Source of the DNA: Acutalibacteraceae bacterium
GTDB lineage: Bacteria; Bacillota; Clostridia; Oscillospirales; Acutalibacteraceae
DNA length: 64,000 nucleotides
Assembly: GCA_045543035.1 (NCBI GenBank)
Contig: JAZQMA010000055.1
Span: 3,190-67,189, forward strand
Reading direction: 5' to 3'
Shown here: positions 1,031-31,216 of the stretch, one piece after another
How the letters are laid out: every line of letters begins with the position of its first letter
Numbering within the stretch: the first letter of the stretch is position 1
The notes under the pieces: model-generated
Databases searched by the model: none
Told to the model about the DNA's origin: nothing
Seen by the model: only the letters and a program-made list of their open reading frames with translations
Made by a program: the position numbers and the translations under genes

Positions 1031-1032
1031 AA

Positions 1033-1068
1033 AACAGGAACGAGTATTCTTGCTCGTTCCTGTTTTTT
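1033..1068. terminator. Rho-independent terminator, bidirectional shape
   Basis: Perfect 12-bp stem AACAGGAACGAG/CTCGTTCCTGTT, preceded by an A-run and followed by a T-run directly after the tex stop. Confidence 0.8.
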
Positions 1069-1074
1069 AGCTAT

Positions 1075-1212
1075 CAGTCGCCAGTCTCCAGCCCCCAGTT
1101 TCATATCAGATTATTTATTGTTCTATTTTTAATTTCAAATTAAGGTAAAAGTAAATTTACAATAACAAAGTTATTCCCACAATTCTGGCAGCTGGTAGCT
1201 GGCAACTGGCAT
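1075..1212. repeat. Heptamer-armed intergenic element (CAGNNNC x4 opposed by CTGGNAN x4)
   Basis: cagtcgc cagtctc cagcccc cagtttc at 1075-1102. Inverted ctggcag ctggtag ctggcaa ctggcat at 1185-1212. They bracket an AT-rich ~80-bp core. Confidence 0.6.
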
Positions 1213-1243
1213 CTAAAAAGGACTGCCTACGCAGTCCTTTTTC

Positions 1244-2122: not shown

Positions 2123-2196
2123 TTATAATACCTCACATTTATAATATACCTATATAATATAGCACATTGTTTCGGGTTTGTCACTACCTATTTTAA

Positions 2197-2447
2197 AAAT
2201 GCAGAATGCAGAATGCAAAATGCAAAATTAAGGGTGCTGCGCACAGCAATTATAAAAAAGTTAAAGAATTTAAGACATTCATTGTCCCGAATCATTTTTC
2301 TGTTATTGTGTTTAGTTGATTTAAAAGTAAGAAAGCTATTGTTTGAATAATTAATATAATGTTTGGAAGCGAAGCTTCCCCGATAATTCTGCATTCTGCA
2401 TTCTGCATTTTGCATTTTGCATTTTGCATTTTGCATTCCTCACTCCT
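2197..2447. repeat. Heptamer-armed intergenic element (AATGCAR arms in inverted orientation)
   Basis: AATGCAG/AATGCAA repeats at 2197-2228. Their reverse complement (ATTCTGC x3, ATTTTGC x4-5) lies at 2386-2447. The core ends with GGAAGCGAAGCTTCCCCGA, as in the 4745-4795 copy. Confidence 0.75.
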
Positions 2448-2455
2448 AACTAAAA

Positions 2456-2482
2456 AACCACCTCAATCGAGGTGGTTTTTTC
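2456..2482. terminator. Bidirectional rho-independent terminator
   Basis: AAAAAACCACCTC-AATC-GAGGTGGTTTTTT hairpin downstream of the minus-strand gene ending at 2501. Confidence 0.75.
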
Positions 2483-2500
2483 TATCTATTGTTCTTGCGA

Positions 2501-3571
2501 TTAAACTGTTTCTTTTTTCTTTCTTGTGAGAACGAACGCTGCAGAAGCTGCTACGCAGATTGTTGCTGCGAGAGCGATACCTACATCGCCTGTTTCTTCG
2601 GAACCCTGTGAAGAACCTTCAGCAGTTGTTTCGAGATTGGGAGCTGTTGTTGCAGGAGCTGTTGTTGCGGGAGCTTTTGTTTCATCATCGCCACCGAAGA
2701 GACCCATAAGGAAATCGATGATTTTATTAAGAAGCTCTTCAAAGAAGCTGAAGTCAATTCCAAGACTATCAAGAACATTCTTGAAGAGGTCTGAAATATC
2801 AACGTTACCGTCAACGAGCTGTTCGATAATATCTGTGATTTCTGCGTTACCGAGCATATTAGCGATAGCATCTGCAAAGTCTGCGAATGTTACGCCGTTG
2901 CCGTTAAGCAAATCTCTGATAAGGTCGAGAAGAACGTTAATATCAGAAGCGGAAGTATCGCCATCTGCAACGTCATCGCTTGAGGGCTCTGTTGTTTCGG
3001 GAATAACATCCTCGGGGAAGAGGAAGTTAACAACTTTATTTTCTACAAGAAGAGTTGATGTAACATCGTTTGCATCGTCGCCATCGTCGGTGCGGAACTC
3101 TTCAACATAAACATTGTAAGATGTTTCTGTTTTTGTTGTATCAATAACGCTGAATGTTATGTAGAAAATATCTCTTGCGCCATTCTTTGAAACACCGCTG
3201 TTTGAAATCCAACCGAAAGAATATTCGTTATCAGTACCGGTTTTGTAACCGTTAACAGCAATACCGTTAAAGAAAGCGTTGAAATTATCGTCTGCATCAT
3301 AAGAACCTGCAAGGTTTGCATCCTTAACAGCGAGAACTGCAGGGTCGAATGAAATGTAGAGGTTAACACCGGTGAGCTTTTTAACAGCAGGAACTGTAAC
3401 CGCAACGGTGAAAGTAGTTTTAGTAACAACATCTGTTCCTGAGTTGTTATTGTTGTATTTGCCCTCCATAACGCGAGTTGCGATACCGGGGTCAACAACT
3501 GCCGAACTCATCGGTGCGATACTGATACAGATGAGCAACGCAGAAAGAAAAATCGCAAGAACTTTTTTCAT
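2501..3571 (-). CDS. Cohesin-like domain surface protein with C-terminal membrane anchor
   Basis: Has a signal peptide and a beta-rich module (VNLYISFDPAVLAV...GWISNSG...FYITFSV) resembling cohesin domains. A Thr/Pro linker (APATTAPATTAP) and a C-terminal TM helix followed by RKKKE complete it. Confidence 0.5.
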   Translation of the reverse strand: MKKVLAIFLSALLICISIAPMSSAVVDPGIATRVMEGKYNNNNSGTDVVTKTTFTVAVTVPAVKKLTGVNLYISFDPAVLAVKDANLAGSYDADDNFNAFFNGIAVNGYKTGTDNEYSFGWISNSGVSKNGARDIFYITFSVIDTTKTETSYNVYVEEFRTDDGDDANDVTSTLLVENKVVNFLFPEDVIPETTEPSSDDVADGDTSASDINVLLDLIRDLLNGNGVTFADFADAIANMLGNAEITDIIEQLVDGNVDISDLFKNVLDSLGIDFSFFEELLNKIIDFLMGLFGGDDETKAPATTAPATTAPNLETTAEGSSQGSEETGDVGIALAATICVAASAAFVLTRKKKETV

Positions 3572-3820
3572 TAATATCTTCCTTTACTTGAAATTGAGGA
3601 AAAATCCTCTGCCACACAAGTGCGCATAGATATAGCATCACTTATAGCCTGCATTGATTATATTACAAATGGCACACAAAGTCAATAGATATTTTCCATT
3701 TATATAAGAAAAAATGCAAGTACTTTTTGCAACCCAAGCACCCGAAAACCCTTGTCCCATCAAGGATTTCCAACCATTCCGTCATTTTATACAAAATAAT
3801 GGGGTGTTTTTGTACAGTAT

Positions 3821-4346
3821 AAAATGCGGAGTGCGGAATGCGGAATGCGGAATTAGCTTCGCACACAACAATAAATCCTCCGCCCTTTTATATTTTTTTC
3901 AGATAATTCTTTTATCAATTGAGGGATATGGAGTGCGGAATTAGCTTCGCACACAACCACAAATCCTCCGCCCTTTTATATTTTTTTCAAATAATTCTTT
4001 TATCAATTGAGGGATATGGAATGCGGAATTAGCTTCGCACACAACCACAAATCCTCCGCCCTTTTATATTTTTTTCAGATAATTCTTTTATCAATTGAGG
4101 GATATGGAATGCGGAATTAGCTTCGCACACAACCACAAATCCTCCTCCCTTATTATATTTTTTCAGATAATTCTTTTATCAATTGAGGGATATGGAATGC
4201 GGAGTGCGGAATTAGCTTCGCACACAACCACAAATCCTCCGCCCTTTTATATTTTTTTCAGATAATTCTTTTATCAATTGAGGGATATGGAATGCGGAGT
4301 GCGGAATTAGCTTCGCACACATCTACAAATCCCCCCACCTTTACAT
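3821..4346. repeat. Tandem array, about 6 copies of an 88-bp unit (one unit is 95 bp)
   Basis: GAGGGATATGG recurs at 3921, 4009, 4097, 4185 and 4280. Every unit contains AATGCGGAATTAGCTTCGCACACAACCACAAATCCTCCGCCCTTTTATATTTTTTTCAGATAATTCTTTTATCAATTGAGGGATATGG. There are no unique spacers. Confidence 0.9.
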
Positions 4347-4347
4347 T

Positions 4348-4704
4348 TTATTTTTTAGATAAATCTTTCTTCGTGGTTTTGGTTATAGCAACTAAAAGAC
4401 TTATAACCTCATCCAAATCTTTATTAAGGCTTTCAAATTCTTGTTCTGTGAGATAATCATTAGCCTTCAAAAGTCTGAGCCAATAATTTGTTTCATTAGC
4501 CTCTTTTAGTGCAATTGTCATTTTCGCATAAAAATCAGATTTAGATTGACCTCTTTCTGCCTCTGAAACATTTGCACCTATGCTTGTCCCCGAACGTAAA
4601 ACCTGTCTTGAAACATCATATTCTTTCTTTTCATTAACCAAATAATCTTTTAATTTAAATATTCTAACCGCAAAATCAAAACTCTTAACTTCGATTACAT
4701 TCAT
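4348..4704 (-). CDS. Four-helix-bundle protein (23S rRNA intervening-sequence protein / Avd-fold family)
   Basis: 118 aa with QVLRSGTSIGANVSEAERGQSKSDFYAKMTIALKEANETNYWLRLL, the hallmark of the PF05635-type family. Confidence 0.85.
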   Translation of the reverse strand: MNVIEVKSFDFAVRIFKLKDYLVNEKKEYDVSRQVLRSGTSIGANVSEAERGQSKSDFYAKMTIALKEANETNYWLRLLKANDYLTEQEFESLNKDLDEVISLLVAITKTTKKDLSKK

Positions 4705-4744
4705 AAAGGAACTTATAACTTCCTTTCACTTTTAACTTTTATAT

Positions 4745-4795
4745 AATGTTCGGAAGCGGAGCTTCCCCGACATTCCGCATTCCGCATTCCGCATT
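4745..4795. repeat. Heptamer repeat arm (ATTCCGC x3-4) with GGAAGCGGAGCTTCCCCGA linker
   Basis: Inverted relative to the AATGCGG heptamers of the 3821-4346 array. It overlaps the stop codon of the 4794..7082 gene. Confidence 0.8.
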
Positions 4796-7082
4796 ATAAC
4801 TCTATATCTTCTATTTTTCCGTTAAACTTCTCAATCGCTCCGAATATTCTCTCTTTTAATTCCGAATTTCGAATTCCGAATTCCGAATTCTCTTTCGCAG
4901 GAAGTAAGAACACACCGATTGAACAGCTCTCTCCTATTTTCTCGGGTATCATTTTAACTGCTCCGCCATTGATTGTTCGCTTTGTGAACTTGCATTTTCT
5001 GTCGCAGTATTCACAAATCCATTCACTATCTTCAAAGGGTAACGGCGGATTTTTAAGAGTAGGCGCTTTAGTTGTCAACGCACCTGTGGGACAAACATTC
5101 ACACAAGCACCGCAGGAAATGCACTTACTATCACCCAAGGGCAAATCAAATGCACTCAAGGGCAATGTTCCGAAGCCTCTGCCGAAAAGACCGAGATTTT
5201 CAGTACCGCTTATTTCCTTACAAGCCCTTACACACTGACCGCAAAGAATACATTTATTGTTATCGCGGACAATAAAAGGATGGCTTTTATCTTTTGCGTA
5301 CTGCCTTGTTTTGCCGAAGATACCCGAAGCGAAAGCATCATAATCTCTTGCATAGGGCAAAAGCTCGCAGGAATAGACCGCAGAGCAACCGCATTCAAGG
5401 CATCTCTCTGCCTCTTTCATAGCCTCTTCTCTTGTAAAAGTGAAAGCCGCCTCGCTGAAATTCTTATTTCTGATATTTGCATCAACAAGCTTTACTTCAG
5501 CTCTGTCAATTTGTGGCATACCCTTTAAAACTTCAGGGTTAAAATTCTTATTCACGGAGTAATCGGGTAATTCGGGCGGAACGCTCACACCCTTGAACCA
5601 GCAGTCAATACTTCTTGCGGCATATTTACCGCCTGCAATTGCTCTGATTGCTATATCAGGACCTTTATTGATAACATCACCTGCGGCAAAAACGCCATCA
5701 ACAGATGTCATAAATGTTGTTTCATCAACGAAAATTGTTGATTTTTTTGTTAATTCAAGGCTATCAATATCACTGCCGACAACCTTCTGTCCGATAGCAG
5801 AAATAACAGAATCACATTCTATAATTTCTGTTGCACCTTCTATTGCAACAGGACTTCTTCTGCCACTTGCATCAGGTTCGCCAAGCTCCATTTTCTGAAC
5901 CTTAAGACCTGTAACCTTACCGTTTTCGCTTATAACCTCAACAGGTGCGCAAAGGAATTTGAACTGTACACCCTCTGCCCTTGCATCACGGATTTCATCA
6001 GGTTCAGCAGGCATTTCATTTTCAGTACGGCGGTAAATAAGATTAACCTCTTCTGCACCAAGTCTTACAGCAGTACGAACTGCATCAATAGCAGTGTTAC
6101 CGCCACCAACAACACAGACCTTTTTACCTAAATCAACCTTTTCACCTTTCGCAACCTTATAAAGCACATCAATGCCACCGAAAACGCCATCTGCATCTTC
6201 ACCGGGACATCTCATAGATGATGCACTCCATGCACCGATTGCAACGAAAACAGCATCAAAATCACCTTTAAGGGACTGAACTGTAAAATCTCTGCCAAGC
6301 CTTTTGTTATAATGGATCTGAACACCCATTTTTTCGATATTTTCAATCTCTTTATCGAGAATATCTTTAGGTAATCTATAAGCAGGAATACCGTAACGAA
6401 GCATTCCGCCACCCTTTTCCTCGCTTTCAAAAATCTCAACCGAATAGCCCTTCATTGCAAGGAAATATGCGCAGGAAAGTCCTGCAGGACCTGCACCGAT
6501 AATTGCAACTGTTTTGCCGTTTTTCTCTTCACAGGGTGGAATATAATCCATAAAGCTATCTGCCGCGAAACGTTTAAGAGCGCAGATAGAAACAGCACCT
6601 TCAAGATGAGCGCGACGGCATTTTTCCTCGCAAGGATGAGGACAAACTCTGCCTATTGAAGCAGGCAACGGGTTATCCTGTTTAATAATTTCAAGTGCTT
6701 TTTTCTCTTCACCGTTGGCAATAAGACCAACATAAGCCTGAATGTCCTGATGAGTAGGGCAAGCCATATAGCAGGGAGCTTTGCAGTCGCCTGCATGGTC
6801 GCTCATAATAACAGAAAGTGTCATTTTTCTGCTTTTTTCAAGCTCAGGAGTGCTTGTTGTAACGCGCATACCCTCGGTAACGGTTGTTGAACAAGCGCGA
6901 AGAGGCTTTCTTATACCCTCAACCTCAACAAGACAAAGTCCGCAACCGCCATAGCTTTCAAGCTCTTTGTTATGGCAAAGGTGGGGAAGATATATTCCGT
7001 TTTCCAAAATATTATCAAGAAGAGTTTTTTCTGTGTCTGCAAGGTATTCTTTGCCGTTGATTATGATTTTAACCGAACTCAT
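4794..7082 (-). CDS. Fusion of NuoG/HydA-N-terminal-like Fe-S domains with a GltD/NfnB-like FAD-NAD(P) oxidoreductase (StnC-like; no H-cluster)
   Basis: N-terminal 2Fe-2S ferredoxin-like fold (IINGKEY...GGCGLCLVEV), GAGPAGLSCAYFLA and VVGGGNTAID dinucleotide motifs, and C-terminal CxxCxxCxxxCP clusters. The hydrogenase L1-L3 motifs are absent. Confidence 0.8.
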   Translation of the reverse strand: MSSVKIIINGKEYLADTEKTLLDNILENGIYLPHLCHNKELESYGGCGLCLVEVEGIRKPLRACSTTVTEGMRVTTSTPELEKSRKMTLSVIMSDHAGDCKAPCYMACPTHQDIQAYVGLIANGEEKKALEIIKQDNPLPASIGRVCPHPCEEKCRRAHLEGAVSICALKRFAADSFMDYIPPCEEKNGKTVAIIGAGPAGLSCAYFLAMKGYSVEIFESEEKGGGMLRYGIPAYRLPKDILDKEIENIEKMGVQIHYNKRLGRDFTVQSLKGDFDAVFVAIGAWSASSMRCPGEDADGVFGGIDVLYKVAKGEKVDLGKKVCVVGGGNTAIDAVRTAVRLGAEEVNLIYRRTENEMPAEPDEIRDARAEGVQFKFLCAPVEVISENGKVTGLKVQKMELGEPDASGRRSPVAIEGATEIIECDSVISAIGQKVVGSDIDSLELTKKSTIFVDETTFMTSVDGVFAAGDVINKGPDIAIRAIAGGKYAARSIDCWFKGVSVPPELPDYSVNKNFNPEVLKGMPQIDRAEVKLVDANIRNKNFSEAAFTFTREEAMKEAERCLECGCSAVYSCELLPYARDYDAFASGIFGKTRQYAKDKSHPFIVRDNNKCILCGQCVRACKEISGTENLGLFGRGFGTLPLSAFDLPLGDSKCISCGACVNVCPTGALTTKAPTLKNPPLPFEDSEWICEYCDRKCKFTKRTINGGAVKMIPEKIGESCSIGVFLLPAKENSEFGIRNSELKERIFGAIEKFNGKIEDIEL

Positions 7083-14817: not shown

Positions 14818-15867
14818 TTATATTCCTGCAACATCTCCACGTGCAACAACAATTTCATACCCAATACTTCCCATTTTCTTTTTTAGTTCTGCTATATGAA
14901 AAGCATTTTCCACACCAGTATTGAGTTTGTTGTTATATAATTCATATTTTTTCCTTGCGCTTTCAGGCGACAAATTCGGCATAACAACATTCGCACCCGA
15001 GAGAATTCCTTTTTCTCTTCCGTCATTTTTTACTGTGCCAAGTGCCGTTGTGGCAGGCAACAGAATATTGGGGTGGATTAATCTTATAATTGAAAGCAGG
15101 TAGCAGGTCAAATCTGCAGACCCTGCGCTTTCATTTCTGAAAACTGTATCTTTATGGGGAATAAAAGGTCCTATTCCGCACATATCAGGCTTGAATTCTT
15201 CAATAAATTTCAAATCCTTTGCAATATGCTTTATAGTTTGGTATGGTGCACCTACCATAAAACCGCAACCCACCTGATAGCCGATTTCTTTAAGATTTTT
15301 AAGGCATTCCATTCGATTTTCAAAGGACATTTCTTGGGGATGCAATTTTTCATAAAGCTCTTTATCAGCGGTTTCGTGGCGGAGAAGGTATCTGTCCGCA
15401 CCTGCATCAAATAGCCTTTGATAACTCTCTTTGCTTCGCTCACCTAATGAAAGAGTAACCGCGCAATCAGGGAATTTCTCTTTGATTTTTTCTATTAAAT
15501 CGCAAAGTATATCATCGGTATAAAATCCATCCTCGCCACCTTGCATAACAAAGGTACGAAAACCTAAATCATACCCATCTATGCAACACTCTATAATTTC
15601 CTCAGGAGTTAAACGGTATCTCTGACAATTCTCGTTACCGCCTCTGATGCCGCAATACAAACAGTTGTTTTTACAGATATTGCTGATTTCAATAAGTCCG
15701 CGGACAAAAACCTGATTACCGTAAACAGATTTACGGACTTTGACCGCATTTTCTCTCAAATATTGCGCAATTTCAGGTGAATATCCCTCAACCAGCTTCT
15801 CATACTCGGCAAGCGTAAGAGAATGAGCTTCAACAAGCTTCTGCGCAATATTATATATTCTATTCAT
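14818..15867 (-). CDS. hydE: [FeFe]-hydrogenase maturation radical SAM enzyme HydE
   Basis: CKNNCLYCGIR motif, BioB-like TIM barrel, 349 aa, in a hydE-hydG-hydF gene context. Confidence 0.9.
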   Translation of the reverse strand: MNRIYNIAQKLVEAHSLTLAEYEKLVEGYSPEIAQYLRENAVKVRKSVYGNQVFVRGLIEISNICKNNCLYCGIRGGNENCQRYRLTPEEIIECCIDGYDLGFRTFVMQGGEDGFYTDDILCDLIEKIKEKFPDCAVTLSLGERSKESYQRLFDAGADRYLLRHETADKELYEKLHPQEMSFENRMECLKNLKEIGYQVGCGFMVGAPYQTIKHIAKDLKFIEEFKPDMCGIGPFIPHKDTVFRNESAGSADLTCYLLSIIRLIHPNILLPATTALGTVKNDGREKGILSGANVVMPNLSPESARKKYELYNNKLNTGVENAFHIAELKKKMGSIGYEIVVARGDVAGI

Positions 15868-18229: not shown

Positions 18230-18973
18230 ATGCCACAGAGAATGGGAAAATATACAATCGAATTAGAGAACACTCCGTCAATTATAGGCTATGCAGCAGT
18301 GGTTGGAGAAAAAGAGGCGCAGGGACCTCTCGGTCAATGCTTTGATAAAACCTGTAAGGATGCCTTTTTCGGAGAAAAAACCTTTGAAAAAGCAGAAACG
18401 AAAATGCAGAAAATGACAATCGAAACCGCAGTCAAGAAATCAGGTCTTTCCAAAAATGATATTCAGATTGCCTTTGCTGGTGACCTTTTAAACCAATGCA
18501 TCGGTTCATCTTTTGATATGAGGGATTTAGGCTTTTGCTTTGCAGGGCTTTACGGTGCTTGCTCAACTATGGCTCTGTCCCTAGCCCTTGCAGGAATTTT
18601 TGTTGATTGCGGTGCAGCAAAAACTGCCCTTGCCGCCGCATCATCCCATTTCTGCTCAGCAGAAAGGCAATACCGCTTTCCCCTTGAATATGGCGGTCAG
18701 CGTAGCCCCGCAAGTCAATGGACAGTTACAGGCGCAGGTGCAGCAGTAGTTGCCGAAAAGAAAGAAAACGCGCCCACTATTGAGAAGGTTATAATCGGCT
18801 CCGTCAGGGATTTGGGTATAACCGATGTTAATAATATGGGAGCTGCTATGGCTCCTGTTAGTGTTAAACTAAGACCATACAAAACAAAAAGGTATGGTCT
18901 TTCTACACAAACAATTTTAAGAAAGGATAACACACTAAACAACAATGAATGTAACGTTTGCACAATCGCATAA
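18230..18973 (+). pseudogene. spoVAD: spoVAD, 5' part only; homology ends near 18857
   Basis: Residues 1-209 match the SpoVAD thiolase-like fold (FAGDLLNQ, LYGACST, ERQYRFPLEYGGQ, DLGITDVNNMGAAMAP). The tail VSVKLRPYKTKRY... is unrelated and AT-rich, and about 130 expected C-terminal residues are missing. Confidence 0.8.
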
Positions 18974-19071
18974 ATGTTACATTCATTGTTGTTAATATTA
19001 GCTCACAATTATATCAACTAAAAATTTATCAATAATATTAATGAAATACATCGTTTAAGTATACTTGTTAT

Positions 19072-21537
19072 TTAAATACTGTTATTTTCAATATTATTTT
19101 TGGCTTTTTCAAGCACCTGAATTCGATTAAGATGTATAGTTTCCCAAAAATTCTCATCAAAAATTTTATTATTAACAGCTACATTTTCAAAACATTGTCG
19201 TATTTTTAGATATAAATTCTTTGCTTCTCCATAATTACTATTCTGCAATGAATTCAAGCAATCAATTAAATATTCTATTATTTCTCCCAATGTATCACAT
19301 GAATACCAGTATGGATTTACGCGTGGCTGTTGCCTTGCTTCATAAACCTGTTTCATTTCAATAAAAAAATCATAAAACTTATTGGTTTTTTCACTGATCA
19401 TACTTCCTTCATGGTCCGCAAAAGCACCGGAAACTTGTTCGAAAGCCGACATTACAATTAAGATTCGTTGGGCTAGAAAATTCGACTTAGGATCTTTTTT
19501 CATATCTAAAAGATCAAAATATTTAAATTCACTTTCAAATACAGATATATATTCCTTGATGGATAGACTTAGAGTAAACACCATCACCATATCTGCATAA
19601 CACTCAGAAAAGAAAAAAGCAATATCATTAATAATATTTGTTAAAGTTGTTTCACTATTATTCCCGGTAATAAGTTTTGTTTTCTGAAAATTAATAGTTT
19701 CAAAGAGTTGGTGTTTTTGTAAACTTGTTAGTTCTTTGTGTTCTTTTAGATAAGCAGCTATAATTTTACCTAGTATTGAAGGGTCTTCTAACACGGTTTC
19801 TAACGATGCTTTTACATCGACTTTAAGATATCTCAAATATCTAGAGTCGATATCATTAATCCCAAGACCAAAGTATATATGACTGGAAAACTTATCATAT
19901 ACAGTATACTCAGGAATATACAAGTTAATTGCTGTTTCAATAGCCACACAATTAATAAAATATTTTATTCTTTCTTCTCTGCACCTATGCTTATCAGTTA
20001 ACAAATGTGCTACCTCATGAAGAATTGATGTCATTATTAAAAATGGATCACTTATTGAGGTGTAAGGCAACTCAATATATAGAATACTATCACATGGTGG
20101 ATTATCATCAGGAATTATAGGCATTGTTTTTATTCGACGACACAACTTTGGAGTTGTTAAACAAGCAAATCCATCTGTTTCCTCAGGCCGATTCGGAGAA
20201 TATTCTATGTTTTGTAAATATGTAGAGACCAAATTTGAATATGCATTATAATACTCTATCATTCGAACACTAAAGTTATACGTTTTAGGAAGATAGCCTA
20301 TTTTTTCCGTAAAAAATGGTTCTGATTCAACTATTTGTTCATTTAGTTCCTTACATGCTCGCAAATATTGTAAAATTGATTTTTTGAATGCAAATAAATC
20401 TTGATTGTGTTGCTTGCTAATATGCAACCACTTACTTAACACAGAAATACTATCAATCAATAAATAACAAATATCGTCTTGTATATCACTATAGCTCATA
20501 TTTACCATTGCGTTTACCAATTCTAACAACGGCTTTTTCCATCCATAATCATAATCCTGTATATCGTTTGCAAGTCCATCAATAATTTCATTGCATACGT
20601 TAGACAGTTCCTTAGACTTTGGCATTGTTTTATTAGTAACAATATACTCTTCTGCGATTATTATCACAAAATTTTCAAATGTTAAATATATATCATCACT
20701 TGGATTATAATATTTTTTTAAAAACTGCAATAAATTTTTTGTAGTAACATTTTTAAGACTAATTAAGAAATGCCTATTGCTAGAATTGTAAAACATTTTT
20801 GCGGTTGGAAAAATGTTTTGCAAAGTTTTATAAACCTTTTTGTTATAAAGTTTTTTTGTTGGTATGCCCATTATATTTACTGTGGAAATTAACTCTCCAT
20901 TTGATGATACTTCGAGTAAACTTTCATTCTCAATATATTCTTTAGAATTATATATTGTCAATATATGGTTAACCCAACTCGCATTTTGCAAATAATTACT
21001 TAAAAATGTTAGTGTTTTTATTTCAGATGTTTTTACTAATAAAACAAAATCACATAGATCTACTGAATAATAAATTAGATATTTAATGCTAAGTAATTTT
21101 TGTTTTCTTAAGATTTCTCTAATTTTTTTGTTAATGGAACCCACGGTATGAAATTTTATCTCTGTATTTGTAAAAAGCAAAAAAACGCCCAAAAAAAGAG
21201 AATCATCGTTCCAAAAATTCTTTAATAAAATATCATCTTTGGTTGTTTTGTTCTCTCTAACAATATACATTGAATTATAAGAAAAATCACCATTTAATGT
21301 TTCTGATAATTTTTTGCTGTCTATTTCTATTATGGAAGGAACGGAAAATCCATCAGTACTCCTAACTTTATATGGCAAAGTGAAATCATAATGCTCAAAA
21401 GAAATATACGGCAGCAAGGGGTCGTCCGAAACATGTTTTATGTCATCTATAACACTTAATGGTTTTTTTACATTCTGGGTTGTTTTGCAAAACAAAATAT
21501 TTCTAATATCAAACATCGTTACTATCATCCTCTTCAC
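19072..21537 (-). CDS. Large hypothetical protein with HExxH metallopeptidase-like motif
   Basis: 821 aa. It has SILHEVAHLL, and further downstream FFSECYADMV (IrrE/SprT-like spacing). No P-loop was seen. Its start overlaps the upstream gene by 29 nt. Confidence 0.7.
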   Translation of the reverse strand: MKRMIVTMFDIRNILFCKTTQNVKKPLSVIDDIKHVSDDPLLPYISFEHYDFTLPYKVRSTDGFSVPSIIEIDSKKLSETLNGDFSYNSMYIVRENKTTKDDILLKNFWNDDSLFLGVFLLFTNTEIKFHTVGSINKKIREILRKQKLLSIKYLIYYSVDLCDFVLLVKTSEIKTLTFLSNYLQNASWVNHILTIYNSKEYIENESLLEVSSNGELISTVNIMGIPTKKLYNKKVYKTLQNIFPTAKMFYNSSNRHFLISLKNVTTKNLLQFLKKYYNPSDDIYLTFENFVIIIAEEYIVTNKTMPKSKELSNVCNEIIDGLANDIQDYDYGWKKPLLELVNAMVNMSYSDIQDDICYLLIDSISVLSKWLHISKQHNQDLFAFKKSILQYLRACKELNEQIVESEPFFTEKIGYLPKTYNFSVRMIEYYNAYSNLVSTYLQNIEYSPNRPEETDGFACLTTPKLCRRIKTMPIIPDDNPPCDSILYIELPYTSISDPFLIMTSILHEVAHLLTDKHRCREERIKYFINCVAIETAINLYIPEYTVYDKFSSHIYFGLGINDIDSRYLRYLKVDVKASLETVLEDPSILGKIIAAYLKEHKELTSLQKHQLFETINFQKTKLITGNNSETTLTNIINDIAFFFSECYADMVMVFTLSLSIKEYISVFESEFKYFDLLDMKKDPKSNFLAQRILIVMSAFEQVSGAFADHEGSMISEKTNKFYDFFIEMKQVYEARQQPRVNPYWYSCDTLGEIIEYLIDCLNSLQNSNYGEAKNLYLKIRQCFENVAVNNKIFDENFWETIHLNRIQVLEKAKNNIENNSI

Positions 21538-22918
21538 TTATACAATAGTATTTTAATGTATCATTAATAATTGTATTATCAAAAACTTTAAAGTTATAGT
21601 TTATTATATTATTGCAATAGGTTTCCAAAACTAAGTACACTTCTTCCTCCACCTCATACAGTTTAATCATAGTCTTCTTTATTTCATCTGTAAAGTCCTT
21701 GATTGTTGATTCGTTTTCAGATTTATATTCTGATACAAAAGATAGCAATAATATTGAAATATAGCTAATCTCGTATTCTTTTTCTTTTTCTTCTTCTTTA
21801 GTGAAAGGTCTACTACTCCGACAAACACATATATGCTTTATTTTTATTGCAAAAGCATAAAACAAAGACATGATCTCTTTGGTATAACTTGATGTAGATT
21901 CCGAATTTGAAGAAGAATACTGTATTTTTTCTATTACTGATTTTGCTGTCCAACAGTCCGTTCTTTGTGATAAAAAAACTACTAAGGCAACTAAAATATT
22001 CTTCTTCAAAGTGTCTTTGTCTTTTAAATTTTCGGTGCTCTCTTGTTTTTCTGTTTCAACAAACAACTCCTCAATTAAGTTTACCACACTTTGAACAAAA
22101 AAACCTCTATTTTTTTCTATATATTCTTTATTCGTATTAAACGAGTTGTTAAATACTTCTAACAAAAAATGAATAGGATTGAAATCCGAATTATTATTAA
22201 AAGCAATTACTGTTTTTATTACCGAATAACTTAATGGGGTCCAGTTGTCGCTTTCGCCTGACGACAAACTATTAAACAAATAATAACCTAAGTTATATAT
22301 AATGGTATAATGTAGTTCTTTTTGTAAAACGGTTTTTGGGTAACCACTCTTTCTATGACTTAATTTTATATCGATGTATTGTTTTACTTGTTTTTTTACA
22401 TTTGCAATGTTCGAAAAGAAACAAAACAGTATATAAGTATGTAACAAGATGCCAGATAATAATATCACTATTTGACAAATTGCTAAAAACAATTTATTAG
22501 CACTTTGTGCATAAACCAAAACAAAACAAGATATTAAACATAAAACAAATAACATTTTGTGTTTTCTTCCAAATTTTGCTTCTATTATGTATTCAGTTAA
22601 AATATTAAACGATCTTTTTCCAAAAAACAAAGAAAAACTTGATAAAATGATATTCATGTACGAAATCGCCGATAGTTTTTCTAGAAACTTGGTAGCTTCA
22701 AACCCATGAGCATCTAAATTTGTTAGTATTTCGCCATATAATGCACTTGCTTTTTCAATCACATTAACATTCAAATCAAATAAGTCATATACTAGATACA
22801 TCAAACTAATAATGAAGAAAGTAATAGCAGGGATAATTATAATGCGTCTAAGATGATATTTAACTAGTTCCATAACATTAAATAATACTTTTTTTATTTT
22901 TTTCAACATACATCCCAT
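21509..22918 (-). CDS. Hypothetical membrane protein (about 4 N-terminal TM helices plus a cytoplasmic domain)
   Basis: 469 aa with hydrophobic segments in the first ~170 residues. It overlaps, and is probably co-translated with, the 821-aa gene. Confidence 0.65.
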   Translation of the reverse strand: MGCMLKKIKKVLFNVMELVKYHLRRIIIIPAITFFIISLMYLVYDLFDLNVNVIEKASALYGEILTNLDAHGFEATKFLEKLSAISYMNIILSSFSLFFGKRSFNILTEYIIEAKFGRKHKMLFVLCLISCFVLVYAQSANKLFLAICQIVILLSGILLHTYILFCFFSNIANVKKQVKQYIDIKLSHRKSGYPKTVLQKELHYTIIYNLGYYLFNSLSSGESDNWTPLSYSVIKTVIAFNNNSDFNPIHFLLEVFNNSFNTNKEYIEKNRGFFVQSVVNLIEELFVETEKQESTENLKDKDTLKKNILVALVVFLSQRTDCWTAKSVIEKIQYSSSNSESTSSYTKEIMSLFYAFAIKIKHICVCRSSRPFTKEEEKEKEYEISYISILLLSFVSEYKSENESTIKDFTDEIKKTMIKLYEVEEEVYLVLETYCNNIINYNFKVFDNTIINDTLKYYCISEEDDSNDV

Positions 22919-23636
22919 CCTAAAACAAAACGGATTTCCAACAATCTTTATTTGCTGAAAATCCGAATATGATAAAATATACTAAACTCTATTTTGTCTT
23001 TTATACTCTTGATAAGACAAAGCTCTATGATTCCTAGGACCAATATTTTGCGGAACAATTGCTTTTTCATTATCCTTTATTGCATCAGAATCGTGAACAC
23101 AGGAGCTTGGAATAGAAAGATCTGAACAAAAATTTGCACTACAATTTTTCCTGTTTCTGCTTGCTAAATAACGATTGTTAGCATTAGACAATCTACTCAT
23201 CAACCCACCTCATGTCAAGACATAATAACACCTTGTATATTATATTCAGTTTCCGCAAAAATGTCAAGAGAAAAAACAAAATTAACAAAATATTCATATT
23301 CTTCGTTTTTTCATCTTTTTTAGAAATTGTGTCAAATCTAGTGTTTTCAGCAATAATACTATTTTCAACACAACATTTATTATTAAAAATTTTGTAATTA
23401 ACAATAGTTTTACTATTATTTAATTCTTTGAACACTTATAAAATTGTTAATTCACACCTATTTTTATTTCAACTTTAGCTTTATTAGTGGATTACATACA
23501 ACTTCTTATGCTTTAGATGTGATATAGGATTTCTAAATAATATTTATTGCTTCATATTTTAAATTATCCTTATTATATGCATATTAAGAAACTAACATAA
23601 ATAAAAACTCTATTTTATTAAAAAGTTTTAATGTAT

Positions 23637-23932
23637 CTCCATATATATATGACTAAAAATTCAAAATACTTCACAAAAATTTTCAAAAATATTTAAAATC
23701 GTGAAAATCGACAAAAAACGACACCGCTTTTCGTGCAACTACAACAACACGGTGTTATATATATATCCTTATGAAAGGAGTTGGGGATAAATATGAATCT
23801 CCCGTAAAACCAAACAATAATAAATAGAGGTTGATTTTAATGAATACAAGTAAAAAGCAATCGGCATGTCCCATCATGACGAAAGAGAACTAAACGCTAT
23901 TAAAGGAGTTACCAAATACATTAGTAAAAAGG
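23637..23932. repeat. Degenerate copy of the ICE left-end control region (direct repeat of 30909-31216)
   Basis: CTCCATATATATATGAC...CGTGAAAATC...GAAAGGAGTTGG.GATAAATATGAAT...TTGATTTTAATGAATACA... aligns along its length with the copy at 30909. A ~10-nt deletion frameshifts the first ORF (MNTSKKQSACPIMTKEN*). Confidence 0.85.
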
Positions 23933-24046: not shown

Positions 24047-24120
24047 GGGGCATTAGCTCAGATGGGATGAGCGCTTGACTGGCAGTCAAGAGGTCAGGAG
24101 TTCGATCCCCCTATGCTCCA
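24047..24120 (+). tRNA. tRNA-Ala (anticodon GGC)
   Basis: Hand-folded cloverleaf. The acceptor stem GGGGCAT/ATGCTCC carries the G3:U70 Ala identity pair, the anticodon loop is CTGGCAG and the T-loop is TTCGATC. There is one A-C mismatch in the T stem, and CCA is not fully encoded. Confidence 0.8.
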
Positions 24121-24128
24121 CCGAGGTC

Positions 24129-24175: not shown

Positions 24176-24550
24176 ATTTTATCAGTTGCTTCACTAATTA
24201 GGCTAGTTGTCATCTATACTAATTACTGTAATATTAAAAACACAAAAAAATTGAAACATACAAAATGGTGGAAATTCAGGTTATTACCAAACCCAAGCAT
24301 CTTAGGAATGGTTCGGTTTTTAAAAATACAATAGGTTGTATATACTCCTATTAATTTATTTGAAAGTACTGTAGGCTATAAGATGTTTTTTATGTTGAAA
24401 CGGAGAATATTAAAATTCAGTTACAGGATGTGTCAATTTTAATTAAATGGTTATTATAAATTAATTAAGCATGTTTTTTTTACAAAGTTTGACATTAAAT
24501 ATTTTTTATGGTACATTGTATTAGGCATATATACGTGGGAGAGAAATTTT

Positions 24551-25555
24551 ATGAATAAAGAATCCAGGATAGACAAAATAATGAATACAACATTTTTTAA
24601 AATATTTTGCATTTTAGATAGTTTAATTGGCATTATTTCCGCTTTTTTTACTGAAAACAGTCTAGTGGGGAAAGTTGTGTTTTCCCTTGCAGTGTTCATA
24701 ATGTTTGTTGTTGGGTGTTTTTTAGCATTTCGCTATAAAAAATTTATAGATGTTGATAAAAAAAATATAGAGTTATCTACGGAAATAAGTAGTAAAAATG
24801 CAAAAATAGATTTGTTAGAACAAAATATACACAATGGTGTAAAATACACAAACAATGAGGTTGTTGTCACTTTAGATAAAAGCAAAAAGTTATATCGCTT
24901 TGAATTTATAAAAGAATTCGAGATAATTTCCGAAAATGCACCTAAATGGTATTCTGCACAGTTTTATGCAAATAAAATATTGAAAGATAAAAAAGAGTCG
25001 AAAAAATACTATAGGGATAATGTTATTAAATGGGATGACTTAAAAGTACGAGCTACTGTTTCATATTTATACCCCGGTTCTCCGAAGTTTACTGATCCGA
25101 CAAATTTGGTAATTGATAATATTACTGATGAAAATAATTACATTCCCTTTAATATTCAATACATAACTTTTCGTAACAAAAGAAATTTAGATATAAAGAA
25201 AGGTACTAAAGTAAAATTAAAGTACTGTTATAACGTTCCTGTGCATCTATGGGGTAGTTACTTGAATAGAACTATTAGTTATTTCGGGGAACCTACTATT
25301 GTAAAATTAAAGTACGACCTGGATACAGAGCTTGATATTAAAGTTTCCTCGTTAAGTGGTGTCGGTGGAGAGCCTCTTGTTACTGAAGATTACAGCACAA
25401 ATGTTGATGAAGAAAACCAATATGTAGTTTACACTATAACATTAAAATCACAGCCTTTTGCCAAATATAGAATATGGTGGGATTCTGAAAAATATTTTGA
25501 GAATGACAAAACAACGGAAGATACCGCTGATCATTCGCAACTAACAACTTATTAG
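24551..25555 (+). CDS. Hypothetical 2-TM protein with coiled-coil and beta-rich C-terminal domain
   Basis: 334 aa with two hydrophobic helices in residues ~15-60. The stop lies 14 nt before the start of the radical SAM gene. Confidence 0.65.
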   Translation: MNKESRIDKIMNTTFFKIFCILDSLIGIISAFFTENSLVGKVVFSLAVFIMFVVGCFLAFRYKKFIDVDKKNIELSTEISSKNAKIDLLEQNIHNGVKYTNNEVVVTLDKSKKLYRFEFIKEFEIISENAPKWYSAQFYANKILKDKKESKKYYRDNVIKWDDLKVRATVSYLYPGSPKFTDPTNLVIDNITDENNYIPFNIQYITFRNKRNLDIKKGTKVKLKYCYNVPVHLWGSYLNRTISYFGEPTIVKLKYDLDTELDIKVSSLSGVGGEPLVTEDYSTNVDEENQYVVYTITLKSQPFAKYRIWWDSEKYFENDKTTEDTADHSQLTTY

Positions 25556-25569
25556 GAGAATTTCACGAA

Positions 25570-26388
25570 ATGAAATATAGTGAAAACAGCAGGGCTTTCG
25601 CCTCTTTTTCAGGAAAATGTCCATATGAATGTTCGCACTGTTATACGTTTTCTAAAGAATTTGTTAGCAAAGGTAAAGCCGATGTTAATAGTATCATTAA
25701 CGAACTCAATTCTAAAAAGAATTTTAACATTGTTTACATTTCTGGTTACAAAGAGAATTTTGTCGATCCCGCAAAAGGAATGTCTTTATTGGAATCTGTT
25801 TATGACAATTTCTGTTGTGATATACTAATTACCACTAGAGCTGTATTTGATGTAAATAATACAAATAGGTTATTTGCGTTAAACGCTCGAATGCAAAGTA
25901 ATGGTAATCACTTGTATTTTTGTGTCTCAATACCAGCATATGAATCATATCGGCTGTTGGAACCCAACCCAATAATCCCTTCCCCTTCCCAACGATTACA
26001 ATTTTTAAAAAATATATATTTGGGTGGAATCAATGCAATACTTACTATTAGGCCTTTGTGCCCAAATACTTTTGTACCAATTTCAGAAAGTATTAGACTA
26101 ATAAATGAGATTGATGGATATTGTTCAGCCGTTATCTCAAGTGGTATTGTTGTTGATAATTTTATATTGACCAAATTAAATGAGTTTCCTGATGTCTTTG
26201 ATTATGAAGAAAAGAAACTGATGAATTGCTTAGAAAATGATATTAATGTAAAATATGTTAATGTCAAAAAAGAGTTAGAACAAGTTGAGAACACTTGTAA
26301 AAAATCTGGCATTCCGTTCTTTCAAAATAGTTTACCAGCAATTAATTACATATTTAGTCTAAAGCACATCGAAAATAAGGATACCTAG
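25570..26388 (+). CDS. Radical SAM protein, SplB/COG1533 (DNA-photolyase-like) type
   Basis: CPYECSHCY is a CX3CX2C motif near the N-terminus. ITTRA and SIPAYESYRLLEPNPIIPSPSQRLQFLKN...ILTIRPLCPN resemble the spore-photoproduct-lyase-like family pattern. Confidence 0.7.
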   Translation: MKYSENSRAFASFSGKCPYECSHCYTFSKEFVSKGKADVNSIINELNSKKNFNIVYISGYKENFVDPAKGMSLLESVYDNFCCDILITTRAVFDVNNTNRLFALNARMQSNGNHLYFCVSIPAYESYRLLEPNPIIPSPSQRLQFLKNIYLGGINAILTIRPLCPNTFVPISESIRLINEIDGYCSAVISSGIVVDNFILTKLNEFPDVFDYEEKKLMNCLENDINVKYVNVKKELEQVENTCKKSGIPFFQNSLPAINYIFSLKHIENKDT

Positions 26389-26892
26389 AAAGGCGATTTA
26401 GTTTTTCTAGGTATTCTTATTTTCAAGCAGCAGATAAGCACTCCAGTTTCACCTCACAGGAAAAGGAATAATTTGAAAATGATGCAGCAAAGAAAAAACA
26501 CTACAAAATAAGATTATACAAATACAAAAAAGCAGCTTTGTAATTGCATTACCAGAACACAAGAATGATATAAATTTCTCTATGCCATTGTCATAAAAGC
26601 CTTACTTCGACTTGTTTTGCATGGCGTTATTGTTACAATACAGCGGGATTGTGTCGATAAGAGATGAGTTGATATCGGCATAATGTTGGAAAAGGAACCA
26701 AAAAACATGAAAGATTGTGTAAAAATGAAGAAAAAAACGCCTAAATTGTTGAAAATTGGAAATTCGTGTGTTATTATACTCTTGAAAGAAAGTACAGAAA
26801 AACTACAGAAAATAAGACAAGTTATTATGGATGAAAGTGCTTTGGATAAAAAAGGTGTGGACAAGCCCACAGGGGCAAAAGGGGAAATAAAA

Positions 26893-27492
26893 ATGGCAAA
26901 TATAACAGAAAAATCCCAACAAAATAATTTGTATTTGTTTACTAATCTTGATGGAAAAACATCAGATGACTTAGTTACAAAATTCGAATTAGATAAAATG
27001 ATCCCAGTTAAATTGGATAAAGTATTTGACTATTGCAGCATTGAGGTTTTACCTACCGATTTTAAAACTTATGAAGAGATTCCTGAAATATCTGAAATCG
27101 TTGATAAAAAAGGACTTATTTTGGGTGCTGTTGCAATAAAAAATAAGCAAATTAACATTTTATATAAAAAAGATGACACTCCACATCGTCAAAAATTTAC
27201 TGTTGCTCACGAACTTGCTCATTGTTGTTTGAATGCTGAGAAAATTGCAGTCGATGGACACGTAGCGTTTAGATTAGATGTGGATATTAAAAATGCTGCA
27301 GAAGACGAATATGAAGCTAATGTTTTTGCTGGCGAACTTCTTATACCTAAAAAAACACTTGATTCGCTATATAAAGTTATAAAAAAGCCAAAACTTGAAA
27401 TACTTTCTAAAATATTTGATGTTTCTGAAAATGTAATGAGAGCAAGATTAAAATATTTAAAATTGCCTTTTGAAGACTCAGTAAATGTTTAA
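26893..27492 (+). CDS. ImmA/IrrE-family (COG2856) metallopeptidase
   Basis: FTVAHELAHCCL ... EYEANVFAGELLIP. Start taken at MANITEK, which has a Shine-Dalgarno. The in-frame upstream extension to 26683 contains an AbrB-like KIGNSCVIILLKE segment, so the true start is uncertain. Confidence 0.7.
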   Translation: MANITEKSQQNNLYLFTNLDGKTSDDLVTKFELDKMIPVKLDKVFDYCSIEVLPTDFKTYEEIPEISEIVDKKGLILGAVAIKNKQINILYKKDDTPHRQKFTVAHELAHCCLNAEKIAVDGHVAFRLDVDIKNAAEDEYEANVFAGELLIPKKTLDSLYKVIKKPKLEILSKIFDVSENVMRARLKYLKLPFEDSVNV

Positions 27493-27506
27493 TTTTTAAT
27501 GCGGAA

Positions 27507-28076
27507 GTGATTCAAGTGCCCAATATTAATGATTGGTTTTCTTCACTAGATATTGAAAATGGCGAAGAGCCCGAATCAGTAGATAATGCCCCAGAAGGAA
27601 GTAATTATACATATAAAGATACAGATATTGTTGATTTTTATAAAAAAGTAAATGATGAAAATAAAACGCCAGAAGAAAATATTCGAGACGGACATATAAG
27701 TAATTTGTTAGAATCCTATGTCAATGCATACAAATCCAAGATAACAACTCAAAAGTGTTTTAGATGTATTCTGTTTCTCATATCTATGTTAATCATAGTC
27801 GCATTTGCTTCTGTTTTTGTTAGTTTACTTGTAAACTTTGACTTTTCATCAGATTTAGATACAAGTGAAAGCCTTATTGGCTTAATATCTGTGTGTGTTA
27901 CATTTCTCACTTCAGTTATAGGAATATTAAAAATTATAGTAAAATACTGTTTCCCTGAAAATGATGAAAAATACATAACAGAAATAGTAAAGGCTGTGCA
28001 ACAAAATGACCTTGAAAACAAAAAGGAAAATTTAAAACATAAGTTAGCAATGAAAAATGATACCAAAAAACTGTAA
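27507..28076 (+). CDS. Hypothetical 2-TM protein
   Basis: 189 aa with a GTG start 14 nt after the ImmA stop. It has an acidic N-terminus, two hydrophobic helices, and a terminator hairpin at 28091-28124. Confidence 0.55.
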   Translation: MIQVPNINDWFSSLDIENGEEPESVDNAPEGSNYTYKDTDIVDFYKKVNDENKTPEENIRDGHISNLLESYVNAYKSKITTQKCFRCILFLISMLIIVAFASVFVSLLVNFDFSSDLDTSESLIGLISVCVTFLTSVIGILKIIVKYCFPENDEKYITEIVKAVQQNDLENKKENLKHKLAMKNDTKKL

Positions 28077-30673: not shown

Positions 30674-30898
30674 TTAACTTGCCTTATCATCCTCTCTATA
30701 ACTGTCAATCCTCTTAATCCACTCCTCTTTTTCTTCAGGAGTTAATTCCCCTAGTGGTTTACGCAATATCTTTGCTACCTTAGATGCATAAAACAGCAAT
30801 TCTATATTCTCTTTATGTAAAGGGTTTTCGTTCATCCGCATTACAGTTGCTTTTTTCAAAACAAAAGCAGCAAATGAAAAGATAAATCTTTTTAACAT
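30674..30898 (-). CDS. Small hypothetical protein divergent from the ICE left-end genes
   Basis: The ORF ends ...LTPEEKEEWIKRIDSYREDDKAS. The start is ambiguous (30898 or 30841). Confidence 0.4.
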   Translation of the reverse strand: MLKRFIFSFAAFVLKKATVMRMNENPLHKENIELLFYASKVAKILRKPLGELTPEEKEEWIKRIDSYREDDKAS

Positions 30899-30908
30899 CT
30901 TAAATGCA

Positions 30909-31216
30909 CCTCCATATATATATGACAAAAATCGACAAATACTTCACAAAAATTTTTATAAATATTTAAAATCGTGAAAATCAACAAAAAACAACACCGT
31001 GTTTCGTGCAACTACGACAACACGGTGTTGTTTTATATATCCCCATATGAAAGGAGTTGGTGATAAATATGAATCACCCGTAAAACCAAACAAAAAATAG
31101 GAGTTGATTTTAATGAATACAGGTAAAAAGCATCCGAGATTAATCGGTATGTCCCATCATGACGAAAGAGAACTGAACTCTATTGAAGAAGTTGCAAAAT
31201 ATATATGTGAAAAAGG
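30909..31216. repeat. ICE left-end control region (intact copy of the 23637-23932 repeat)
   Basis: Contains the 10-bp inverted repeat CAACACCGTG...CACGGTGTTG, a 4-codon mini-ORF (ATGAATCACCCGTAA) behind GAAAGGAG, and the start of the first ICE gene. Confidence 0.85.

Follow-up and report, generated by a model that had tools for sequence, protein, structure and literature searches.

A compact radical SAM enzyme coupled to a membrane protein with exchangeable N-terminal modules: a candidate defence system in a mobile element of an Acutalibacteraceae bacterium

We analysed a two-gene module carried by an integrative and conjugative element (ICE) in a 64,000-nucleotide (nt) stretch of DNA from an Acutalibacteraceae bacterium (assembly GCA_045543035.1, contig JAZQMA010000055.1, positions 3,190 to 67,189 of the forward strand), referred to below as the window. 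Gene A encodes a protein with two transmembrane (TM) helices and a C-terminal β-sandwich, here called the C-domain, and gene B, immediately downstream, encodes a small radical S-adenosylmethionine (SAM) enzyme. Among the relatives of this pair the constant unit consists of the C-domain, a tail fixed in register to the C-terminus, and an enzyme gene directly downstream, and the N-terminal module of A is swapped for other domains. Judging from these comparisons, the pair is probably a conflict or defence module with an enzyme-sensor-effector logic. Our best explanation taken as a whole, which adds a step in which the enzyme would act through a small molecule, is held more tentatively, with slightly less than even confidence.

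The two genes had been singled out in an earlier reading of this DNA made without database searches (the sequence-only reading), and their coordinates, their lengths and the 14-nt gap within the operon were reproduced exactly when the open reading frames (ORFs) were read again (Table 1). Because the ribosome-binding site of B lies in the 14-nt spacer and overlaps the TAG stop codon of A, the two genes appear to form one operon or to be translationally coupled. The promoter-like site upstream of A agrees with the consensus at 10 of 12 positions and was recognised from that match alone. A terminator belonging to the pair had been placed at 26383-26412; it is real, and both larger and stronger than described, its hairpin folding with -25.9 kcal/mol (z = -8.8) and none of 200 shuffled sequences doing as well, and a generic terminator scan did not pick it up. 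Upstream of the pair no riboswitch was found in the Rfam scan, in which a tRNA was the sole match.

Table 1. Coordinates of the A-B pair, its parts and the surrounding cargo in the window
Feature	Position	Strand	Description	Basis
Cargo segment	23599..31213	.	7.3 kb between direct repeats of ~340 nt	Repeat and annotation searches
tRNA-Ala(GGC)	24047..24122	+	Lone tRNA gene in ICE cargo, ~430 nt upstream of gene A	Rfam
Promoter-like site	24489..24517	+	TTGACA-17 nt-TACATT with TG extension (extended -10), 34 nt 5' of gene A	
Gene A	24551..25555	+	334-residue putative effector/sensor protein	ORF listing, structure model
A, residues ~13-60	24587..24730	+	2-TM hairpin, the swappable N-terminal putative effector module	AlphaFold model and relatives
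A, residues 61-96	24731..24838	+	Helical stalk continuous with TM2, coiled-coil-like, predicted cytoplasmic	Model helix 38-96
A, residues 97-315	24839..25495	+	Conserved β-sandwich, the C-domain	Alignment and model
A, residues 316-334	25496..25552	+	Conserved C-terminal tail	Family alignment
Ribosome-binding site of B	25554..25559	+	AGGAGA, overlapping the TAG stop of A, 11 nt before the ATG of B	Read from sequence
Gene B	25570..26388	+	272-residue compact radical SAM enzyme of an uncharacterised family	ORF listing, alignment, model
Cysteine codons of B	25618..25641	+	C17-x3-C21-x2-C24, [4Fe-4S] cluster motif	Alignment
Intrinsic terminator	26375..26420	+	20-bp stem, 6-nt loop, U-run; overlaps the stop codon of B	

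The AlphaFold model of A (predicted local distance difference test score, pLDDT, 85.7) bears out the two TM helices, the coiled-coil and the β-rich domain that had been proposed for this protein, with one helix at residues 14-32, a second at 38-96, the β-sandwich at 97-315, and a C-terminal tail of about 19 residues. The second TM helix extends into a stalk of about 35 residues, and the positive-inside rule suggests an N-in/C-in topology, which would place the β-sandwich in the cytoplasm. Pfam, NCBIfam and PADLOC gave no significant match for A. In structure the C-domain resembles the N-terminal domain of M1 aminopeptidases (ERAP1, IRAP and LTA4H), BDI_1141 and the OST ribophorin, and a viral fold library returned giant-virus M1-peptidase or VIT-like proteins and nothing else. 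As modelled, it is a predicted binding scaffold, and neither an enzyme fold nor a known immune sensor domain. Its invariant residues are mostly aromatic or polar (Q137, Y139, N141, W161, Y225, Y227, W234, G235, Y237, N239, R240 and W310), and the many invariant Tyr, Trp, Asn and Arg residues in a domain lacking an enzyme fold were counted as support for small-molecule sensing. The tail keeps its register from the C-terminus: counted back from the end of the protein, all 32 family members have Asp at -8, Thr at -3 and a hydrophobic residue at -4, and 31 of them have Thr or Ser at -13. Asp -8 and Thr -3 were also kept in 18 of 18 confirmed pairs, the protein always ending two residues past the Thr. 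No invariant glycine occurs in the tail of the A partner family, and His-Xaa-Ser repeats are absent from the sequence of A.

All four strings that the sequence-only reading had listed for B (CPYECSHCY, ITTRA, RLLEPNPIIPSPSQRLQFL and TIRPLCPN) are present, the first at residues 17-25. The homologues of B form 66 clusters, of which 43 members were aligned, and C17, C21 and C24 were invariant in 43 of 43 aligned homologues and in all 34 locus-derived enzymes. Because PF04055 is matched by 34 of the 43 members (best E 8.7e-9, the window protein itself falling below threshold) and the three cluster cysteines are invariant, membership of B in the radical SAM superfamily is secure on sequence grounds. 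The AlphaFold model (pLDDT 93.3) has a (β/α)6 core, and the significant fold matches in the PDB, found with Foldseek, are all radical SAM enzymes. These matches are to generic cores (NifB, CysS, SuiB and MqnE as the best neighbours, with BioB, MoaA, viperin and LipA), at a TM-score of about 0.55 and 10-15% identity. Neither Pfam, NCBIfam nor PADLOC gave a significant match for B, no cyclase, CD-NTase or TIR model in these libraries matched it, no specific relative was found in the PDB, and a profile of the family had no significant match among PDB sequences. A SPASM domain was not matched in B, an RRE or other peptide-binding extension was likewise not found, and the model has no DNA-binding extension.

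The NCBIfam matches of the B family are all sub-threshold: BchE in 13 of 43 members, TIGR04470 in 12 (best E 1.4e-5) and PA0069, a model related to spore photoproduct lyase, in 2 (E 0.003). For the B protein of the window the best-scoring model was NrdG2, at a level without significance (E 0.0097, 15 bits, where the cut-off is 131). Besides BchE, no specific model was matched more often than TIGR04470, which is named 'radical SAM mobile pair protein B' and so is by name a mobile-pair gene, but the matches lie below its curated cut-off, that of the window protein is not significant, and the partner implied by the name is another radical SAM protein and not an effector; a search for literature on TIGR04470 found none. 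We considered C118, C220 and C243 as a universal auxiliary Fe-S site and rejected the idea, because C118 and C220 are cysteines in the C-domain-coupled clade only. Both are Ala, Gly or Ser in clade II; C118 is invariant in clade I, and Ala or Gly in the sister clade.

A hidden Markov model of the C-domain (A residues 88-334) was run over every fetched locus, and in 18 of the 18 loci with enough sequence the C-domain gene was followed by a B-family radical SAM gene, at a spacing of -4 to +87 nt. The two-gene module proposed from the sequence is thus genuine and co-conserved. The paired loci span Bacillota, Bacteroidia and Acidobacteriota (Lachnospiraceae, Oscillospiraceae and other Clostridia, Tannerella and Symbiothrix of the Bacteroidia, and one Acidobacteriota metagenome-assembled genome, MAG), with partner identity down to 33%, and the nearest pair to that of the window is in a Faecalimonas MAG. 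The family occurs in assemblies apparently from anaerobes. It is also rare, since an exhaustive HMMER search of 1.84 billion representative proteins returned 107 C-domain proteins at E ≤ 1e-3.

The N-terminus of A is exchanged within this family. The loci with an adjacent radical SAM gene comprised ten with a 2-TM hairpin, four with a TIR_2 domain (E 4e-12 to 5e-11), two with a Metallophos domain (E 3e-19) and two in which the N-terminus was 5'-truncated and unclassified, so that adjacency to a B-family gene was confirmed for the 2-TM, TIR and Metallophos variants. In PADLOC, the TIR N-terminus matches ThsB of Thoeris (7e-14) and the Metallophos N-terminus matches the defence candidate PDC-S60 (5e-27). 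More distant C-domain proteins bear SIR2_2, Mrr_cat, HD-CE, FGE-sulfatase, TIR+STAND+FGE, DUF4062 or GT4-conflict modules. Judged by these domain matches, the set of modules placed on the C-domain is the standard effector and adaptor repertoire of conflict systems. In two of the distant proteins (P0159, of 1248 residues, and P0161) an FGE-sulfatase domain lies directly N-terminal of the C-domain, in P0159 behind a TIR domain and a STAND NTPase. FGE is the aerobic counterpart of the radical SAM maturase anSME, and the fusion could be a coincidence or a mechanistic hint.

Variation was found on the enzyme side as well, with further enzyme types downstream of C-domain genes at three loci. At one of them (L056) the gene for the SIR2 variant, P0149, precedes by 14 nt a SPASM-type radical SAM gene that is unrelated to the B family. 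The gene order there (544-5447) is HAD hydrolase, SIR2-C-domain protein, SPASM-type radical SAM enzyme (379 residues), FMN reductase and a 242-residue NUDIX-box protein, the NUDIX-box motif having been read by eye, and the locus looks like a larger variant operon around the same C-domain. At the other two loci (L055, 2-1461, and L058, 813-3181) a PfkB-family kinase gene follows the C-domain gene after 80 nt, and the two kinases are 64% identical. The C-domain protein of L058 is the Mrr variant P0162, with an Mrr_cat N-terminus, and that of L055 is a 5'-truncated fragment in which Thr -3, otherwise invariant, is Ala.

Looking outward from the radical SAM gene at 24 species-level genomic loci, we found a C-domain partner at 8, a second, unrelated partner family at 6 (one of them merely probable) and a solo gene at 10. 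This bears out by half the objection that the radical SAM gene might occur mostly alone in housekeeping contexts, the solo genes lying in metabolic-looking contexts; a partner gene was nevertheless present in all the close relatives looked up, as it was for all C-domain genes. In a sister system (L028, 126-2546; L036, 6713-9563; also L031, L034 and L035) the gene for a GAF-like partner overlaps the start of a B-family radical SAM gene, which in L028 and L036 is followed by a CYTH-like gene. The C-terminal domain shared by these partners, which belong to the second family, has its best matches among GAF domains, which are small-molecule sensors (Nlh1, E 0.006; fRMsr, 0.04), their N-termini vary (TM in L035, Trypsin_2 in L036), and they have no conserved tail. 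The upstream proteins of a distant clade were also tried as divergent C-domains and rejected, hmmsearch --max being negative and hhalign giving a probability of 0.2%. Neighbours of the solo genes include GFO/IDH/MocA or 2-hydroxyacid dehydrogenases, and CYTH-like, NDK and dCMP-deaminase(-like) genes recur at solo loci, the CYTH-like gene also adjoining two GAF-partner loci. In a rough neighbour-joining tree without support values, the C-domain-coupled clade contains one nested solo group; its members keep all invariant residues, and no C-domain gene was found in the ±8 kb around them.

The sequence-only reading had assigned the pair to mobile-element cargo, and this proved correct: it lies within an island of 27-31% GC at the ICE edge. 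The genes and domains of this ICE include a MobL relaxase, TraG-like and CpaF/VirB11-type ATPases, RcpC, NlpC/P60, DUF3849 and LPD28 domains, and methylases. For the family, at least 6 of about 10 distinct contexts are associated with ICEs, prophages or transposons, and some loci are among host genes. Four relatives have the pair at a prophage end or in an element flanked by recombinases. In L043 it directly follows a holin and an endolysin, and in L041/42 a prophage endolysin lies beside it. Its two flanks are a tape-measure gene and a large serine recombinase in L009-11, and an integrase and a serine recombinase in L004-8. In L044 it is close to a HEPN-NTase pair. A short contig of the Acidobacteriota sample (L047, 203-2086) holds a second copy of the pair, in which the partner gene is intact, the radical SAM gene is frameshifted and a transposase adjoins.

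Because a constant regulatory domain, an interchangeable killing module and a dedicated adjacent enzyme are found together in a mobile location, the arrangement suggests the abortive-infection design of CBASS, Pycsar and Thoeris, and the replacement of the N-terminal part of A by a TIR or phosphoesterase domain is a hallmark of a bacterial anti-virus suicide system. As in those systems and the accessory effectors of type III CRISPR, one enzyme and one effector share a small operon on mobile elements or prophages, and the effector joins a constant regulatory domain to a swappable killing module (TM, TIR, SIR2, nuclease or phosphoesterase). The parts differ: where the known systems use a CD-NTase, a cyclase, a TIR protein or Cas10 as the enzyme, the pair has a radical SAM protein, and where they use SAVED, STING, CARF or SLOG as the regulatory domain, it has a β-sandwich like the N-domain of M1 peptidases with a fixed tail. 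The logic would be one already known, with an enzyme class and a sensor domain that are new to it, and a full-text literature search found no description of the A-B pairing in searchable papers.

In the mechanism that we favour, B would cleave SAM reductively and use the 5'-deoxyadenosyl radical to produce or convert a small metabolite, probably one that resembles a nucleotide or a sugar. The β-sandwich of A and its fixed tail would sense this product, or its disappearance, and pass the signal through the helical stalk to the 2-TM hairpin; the hairpins would then oligomerise and breach the membrane, and the cell would be killed or arrested before the invader replicates. The trigger may be an enzyme substrate supplied by the infecting phage. 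Of the two ideas offered in the sequence-only reading, a signal that gates the membrane protein comes close to this scheme, and a DNA-lesion lyase found no support in homology. A small-molecule link between B and A is favoured because PfkB kinases can stand in for the radical SAM enzyme, because solo enzymes keep intact active sites beside sugar or hydroxyacid dehydrogenases, because the sister clade uses a GAF-like sensor, and because nucleotide-handling genes recur nearby.

Several results weigh against this account. One pair (L001) is within a polysaccharide-biosynthesis locus and another (L046) is among ordinary host genes; tblastn searches found neither A nor B in 50,697 phage genomes (INPHARED) and did not find B in 72,556 plasmids (PLSDB), and the IMG/VR viral contigs held no relative of B. 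No PADLOC-DB v2 model matches A or B, the only matches being to the swapped domains of relatives (ThsB-type TIR and PDC-S60 Metallophos). An infection trigger or sensor was not identified, the Pfam, NCBIfam and PADLOC scans revealing no separate sensor, and the product of the solo enzymes could be an ordinary metabolite. Neither the GAF nor the CYTH assignment is better than marginal or sub-threshold, and the tree in which the solo group is nested is a rough one that carries no support values. Two further features favour direct modification of A by B, namely the conserved tail at its fixed distance from the C-terminus, which is what would be expected of a substrate peptide or docking motif, and the SPASM radical SAM enzyme of L056, whose class is mostly peptide-modifying.

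Such a modification, likeliest at Thr -3 or Asp -8 of the tail and serving as effector maturation or as an on/off switch, is the alternative that we take most seriously, although we consider it unlikely. It would account for a tail that is invariant and tied to the C-terminus in the 32 family members and the 18 confirmed pairs, and the apparent translational coupling suggests a stoichiometric A-B complex. PFL-AE and NrdG, which like B are compact radical SAM enzymes of about 250 residues, have as their target a conserved motif at the C-terminus of a partner protein, and NrdG2 was the top, if insignificant, NCBIfam match of B. The SPASM radical SAM class mostly modifies peptides or proteins, which lends weight to the enzyme that follows the SIR2 variant, and the fusion of distant C-domain homologues to FGE-sulfatase points the same way. 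There is also a precedent in the HXS defence system (PMC13128918), in which HxsA is matured by the radical SAM enzymes HxsB and HxsC and which, like the A-B pair, couples radical SAM genes to a defence effector protein. HXS, however, comprises two SPASM radical SAM enzymes, HxsD and a periplasmic effector with His-Xaa-Ser repeats (PMC13128918), whereas the present pair has a single 272-residue enzyme without a SPASM match, a predicted cytoplasmic β-sandwich, no such repeats, and swappable effectors. Also against direct modification, the nested solo enzymes, with no C-domain gene in the surrounding ±8 kb, keep all invariant residues, and the GAF-like partners of the sister clade do without a conserved tail. 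B bears no SPASM, RRE or other peptide-binding extension, and two C-domain genes are followed by a PfkB kinase, a family known for small-molecule and not protein substrates.

An arrangement in which the enzyme continuously holds the effector inactive, either through consumption of an activating metabolite or through modification of A, appears quite unlikely to us. The effector would then fire on the collapse of SAM, reducing power or host translation, which a phage SAM lyase could trigger, as could host shut-off or the mobile element being lost, and the pair would resemble a toxin-antitoxin system that may serve the maintenance of the ICE or prophage as much as defence. A toxin-like effector followed by an enzyme in one operon on mobile elements is consistent with this idea, as is the failure of the library scans to reveal a separate infection sensor. 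The copy of the pair in L047 can be read both ways: the frameshift in its radical SAM gene, with an intact A gene and a transposase adjoining, fits the idea, but it also suggests that intact A is tolerated without B, if the frameshift is real and A is expressed. Nothing ties the system specifically to SAM depletion, and a model with an activating signal fits the same comparative data equally well.

A role outside conflict is improbable. In this case A would be a membrane-anchored scaffold, B would be a metabolic enzyme that might serve cell-envelope or cofactor biosynthesis, and the pair would hitch-hike on mobile elements. The locus within polysaccharide biosynthesis, the dehydrogenases that adjoin solo enzymes and the failure of any known defence model to match the pair would all suit it. 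The TIR, Metallophos (PDC-S60-like), SIR2 and Mrr domains that take the place of the TM hairpin are, however, very hard to square with a biosynthetic scaffold, and the pair recurs at prophage ends.

We find it decidedly improbable that B makes an antiviral nucleotide analogue directly, with A as a parallel or back-up effector or a regulator. Prokaryotic viperins (pVips) act alone, making chain terminators. B resembles them in being a radical SAM enzyme for which a role against phages is proposed and a nucleotide substrate is possible, but it is locked to an effector protein. Viperin is among the fold matches of B (6q2p, Foldseek rank 15, E 1e-3, TM-score 0.55, 11% identity), NDK, dCMP deaminase, NUDIX and CYTH-like neighbours are found at some loci, and solo enzymes exist. 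As the sequence-only reading had held, though, B is not viperin-like: there is no similarity at the sequence level, the viperin fold is no nearer than those of a dozen unrelated radical SAM families, and the strict coupling to a C-domain with swappable effectors would be left unexplained. The same reading named viperin-like enzymes as the only radical SAM defence enzymes known to it, which is outdated in view of HXS (PMC13128918) and of Ophion (bioRxiv 10.1101/2025.09.30.679545), a validated non-viperin defence system with a proposed action on nucleotides in which the radical SAM protein OpnA is joined by PHP and PRTase proteins. Ophion has three genes, a viperin-related radical SAM enzyme, a distribution in Gammaproteobacteria and no effector-sensor protein (bioRxiv 10.1101/2025.09.30.679545). 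Its PHP and PRTase genes do not adjoin the A-B pair, whose neighbours are an ImmA/IrrE peptidase, TM proteins and orphan genes.

The kinship to SplB and COG1533 asserted in the sequence-only reading, and with it a lyase related to spore photoproduct lyase (SPL) that would act on modified or damaged phage DNA, is largely refuted by homology and very improbable: B shares with SplB and PA0069 a CX3CX2C motif near the N-terminus and a similar small size, two distant cluster representatives carry the JGI label 'DNA repair photolyase', two of 43 members have the sub-threshold PA0069 matches, and the invariant C118 of clade I could, speculatively, be an H-atom donor, but no profile or fold evidence indicates a specific relationship, no SPL chain appeared in the PDB profile search at E ≤ 10 or in the top 50 structural matches from Foldseek, B has no DNA-binding extension, and C118 is Ala or Gly in the sister clade.

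The defence reading may have implications beyond this pair. In its most specific form, B would be the signal generator of a second-messenger immune pathway in which radical chemistry on a nucleotide- or sugar-like substrate yields the ligand, this substrate possibly comes from the infecting phage alone so that its availability doubles as the infection sensor, the β-sandwich (GAF-like in the sister clade) is a previously unrecognised receptor, and the effectors (2-TM pore, TIR, phosphoesterase) are interchangeable. We regard this version as possible but doubtful; if true, it would represent the first immune messenger from radical chemistry and an anaerobe-restricted branch of immunity, invisible to screens in aerobic E. 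coli. Confirmation of the enzyme-sensor-effector reading would bring into this type of immunity an enzyme class (radical SAM proteins that do not belong to the viperin lineage) and a sensor domain that are both new to it, and would indicate that screens in aerobic E. coli have overlooked immune systems of gut and termite-gut anaerobes that are sensitive to oxygen. It would also bear on the protection of hosts by the prophages and ICEs of Clostridia and Bacteroidia. The variants in effector (2-TM, TIR, Metallophos, SIR2 and Mrr) and in enzyme (compact, SPASM and PfkB) offer natural controls for work on a ligand or a modification.

The A-B pair shares its cargo segment with the tRNA-Ala, with genes for an ImmA/IrrE peptidase and a TM protein, and with two more orphan genes. 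The direct repeats at its ends (23599-23930 and 30872-31213) are 82-89% identical and duplicate a promoter and the 5' end of a small ICE gene; the left copy of this gene is degraded, and the one at about 31.1-31.45 kb is intact. On the plus strand at 26683-28076, an ImmA/IrrE M78 metallopeptidase gene (26683-27492; CapP-like, E 3e-16, and also RmrA-like) with its own promoter-like site is followed after 14 nt by the gene for a 189-residue TM protein. We considered the peptidase as part of the A-B system and excluded it because the terminator lies between them and because it is absent from all other loci. An orphan pair on the minus strand (19072-22918) encodes an 821-residue protein with an HEVAH (HExxH-type) motif that overlaps the start of a 469-residue multi-TM protein, neither of which has a Pfam or PADLOC match.

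At the boundary with the host sequence, SpoVAD (18230-18993), by which the bacterium is judged to be a spore-former, breaks off at about residue 213 and covers positions 1-207 of the 329 in the Pfam profile. The stop codon of the truncated gene has a 22-nt inverted repeat at it, and the GC content falls from about 40% to 27-31% just beyond. The other half of spoVAD was not found within the window, and the ICE appears to have inserted into this gene; excisable elements are known in other sporulation genes. The host flank outside the low-GC island carries, on the minus strand at 14818-15867, a second radical SAM gene (PF04055, E 6e-20) that is unrelated to B.

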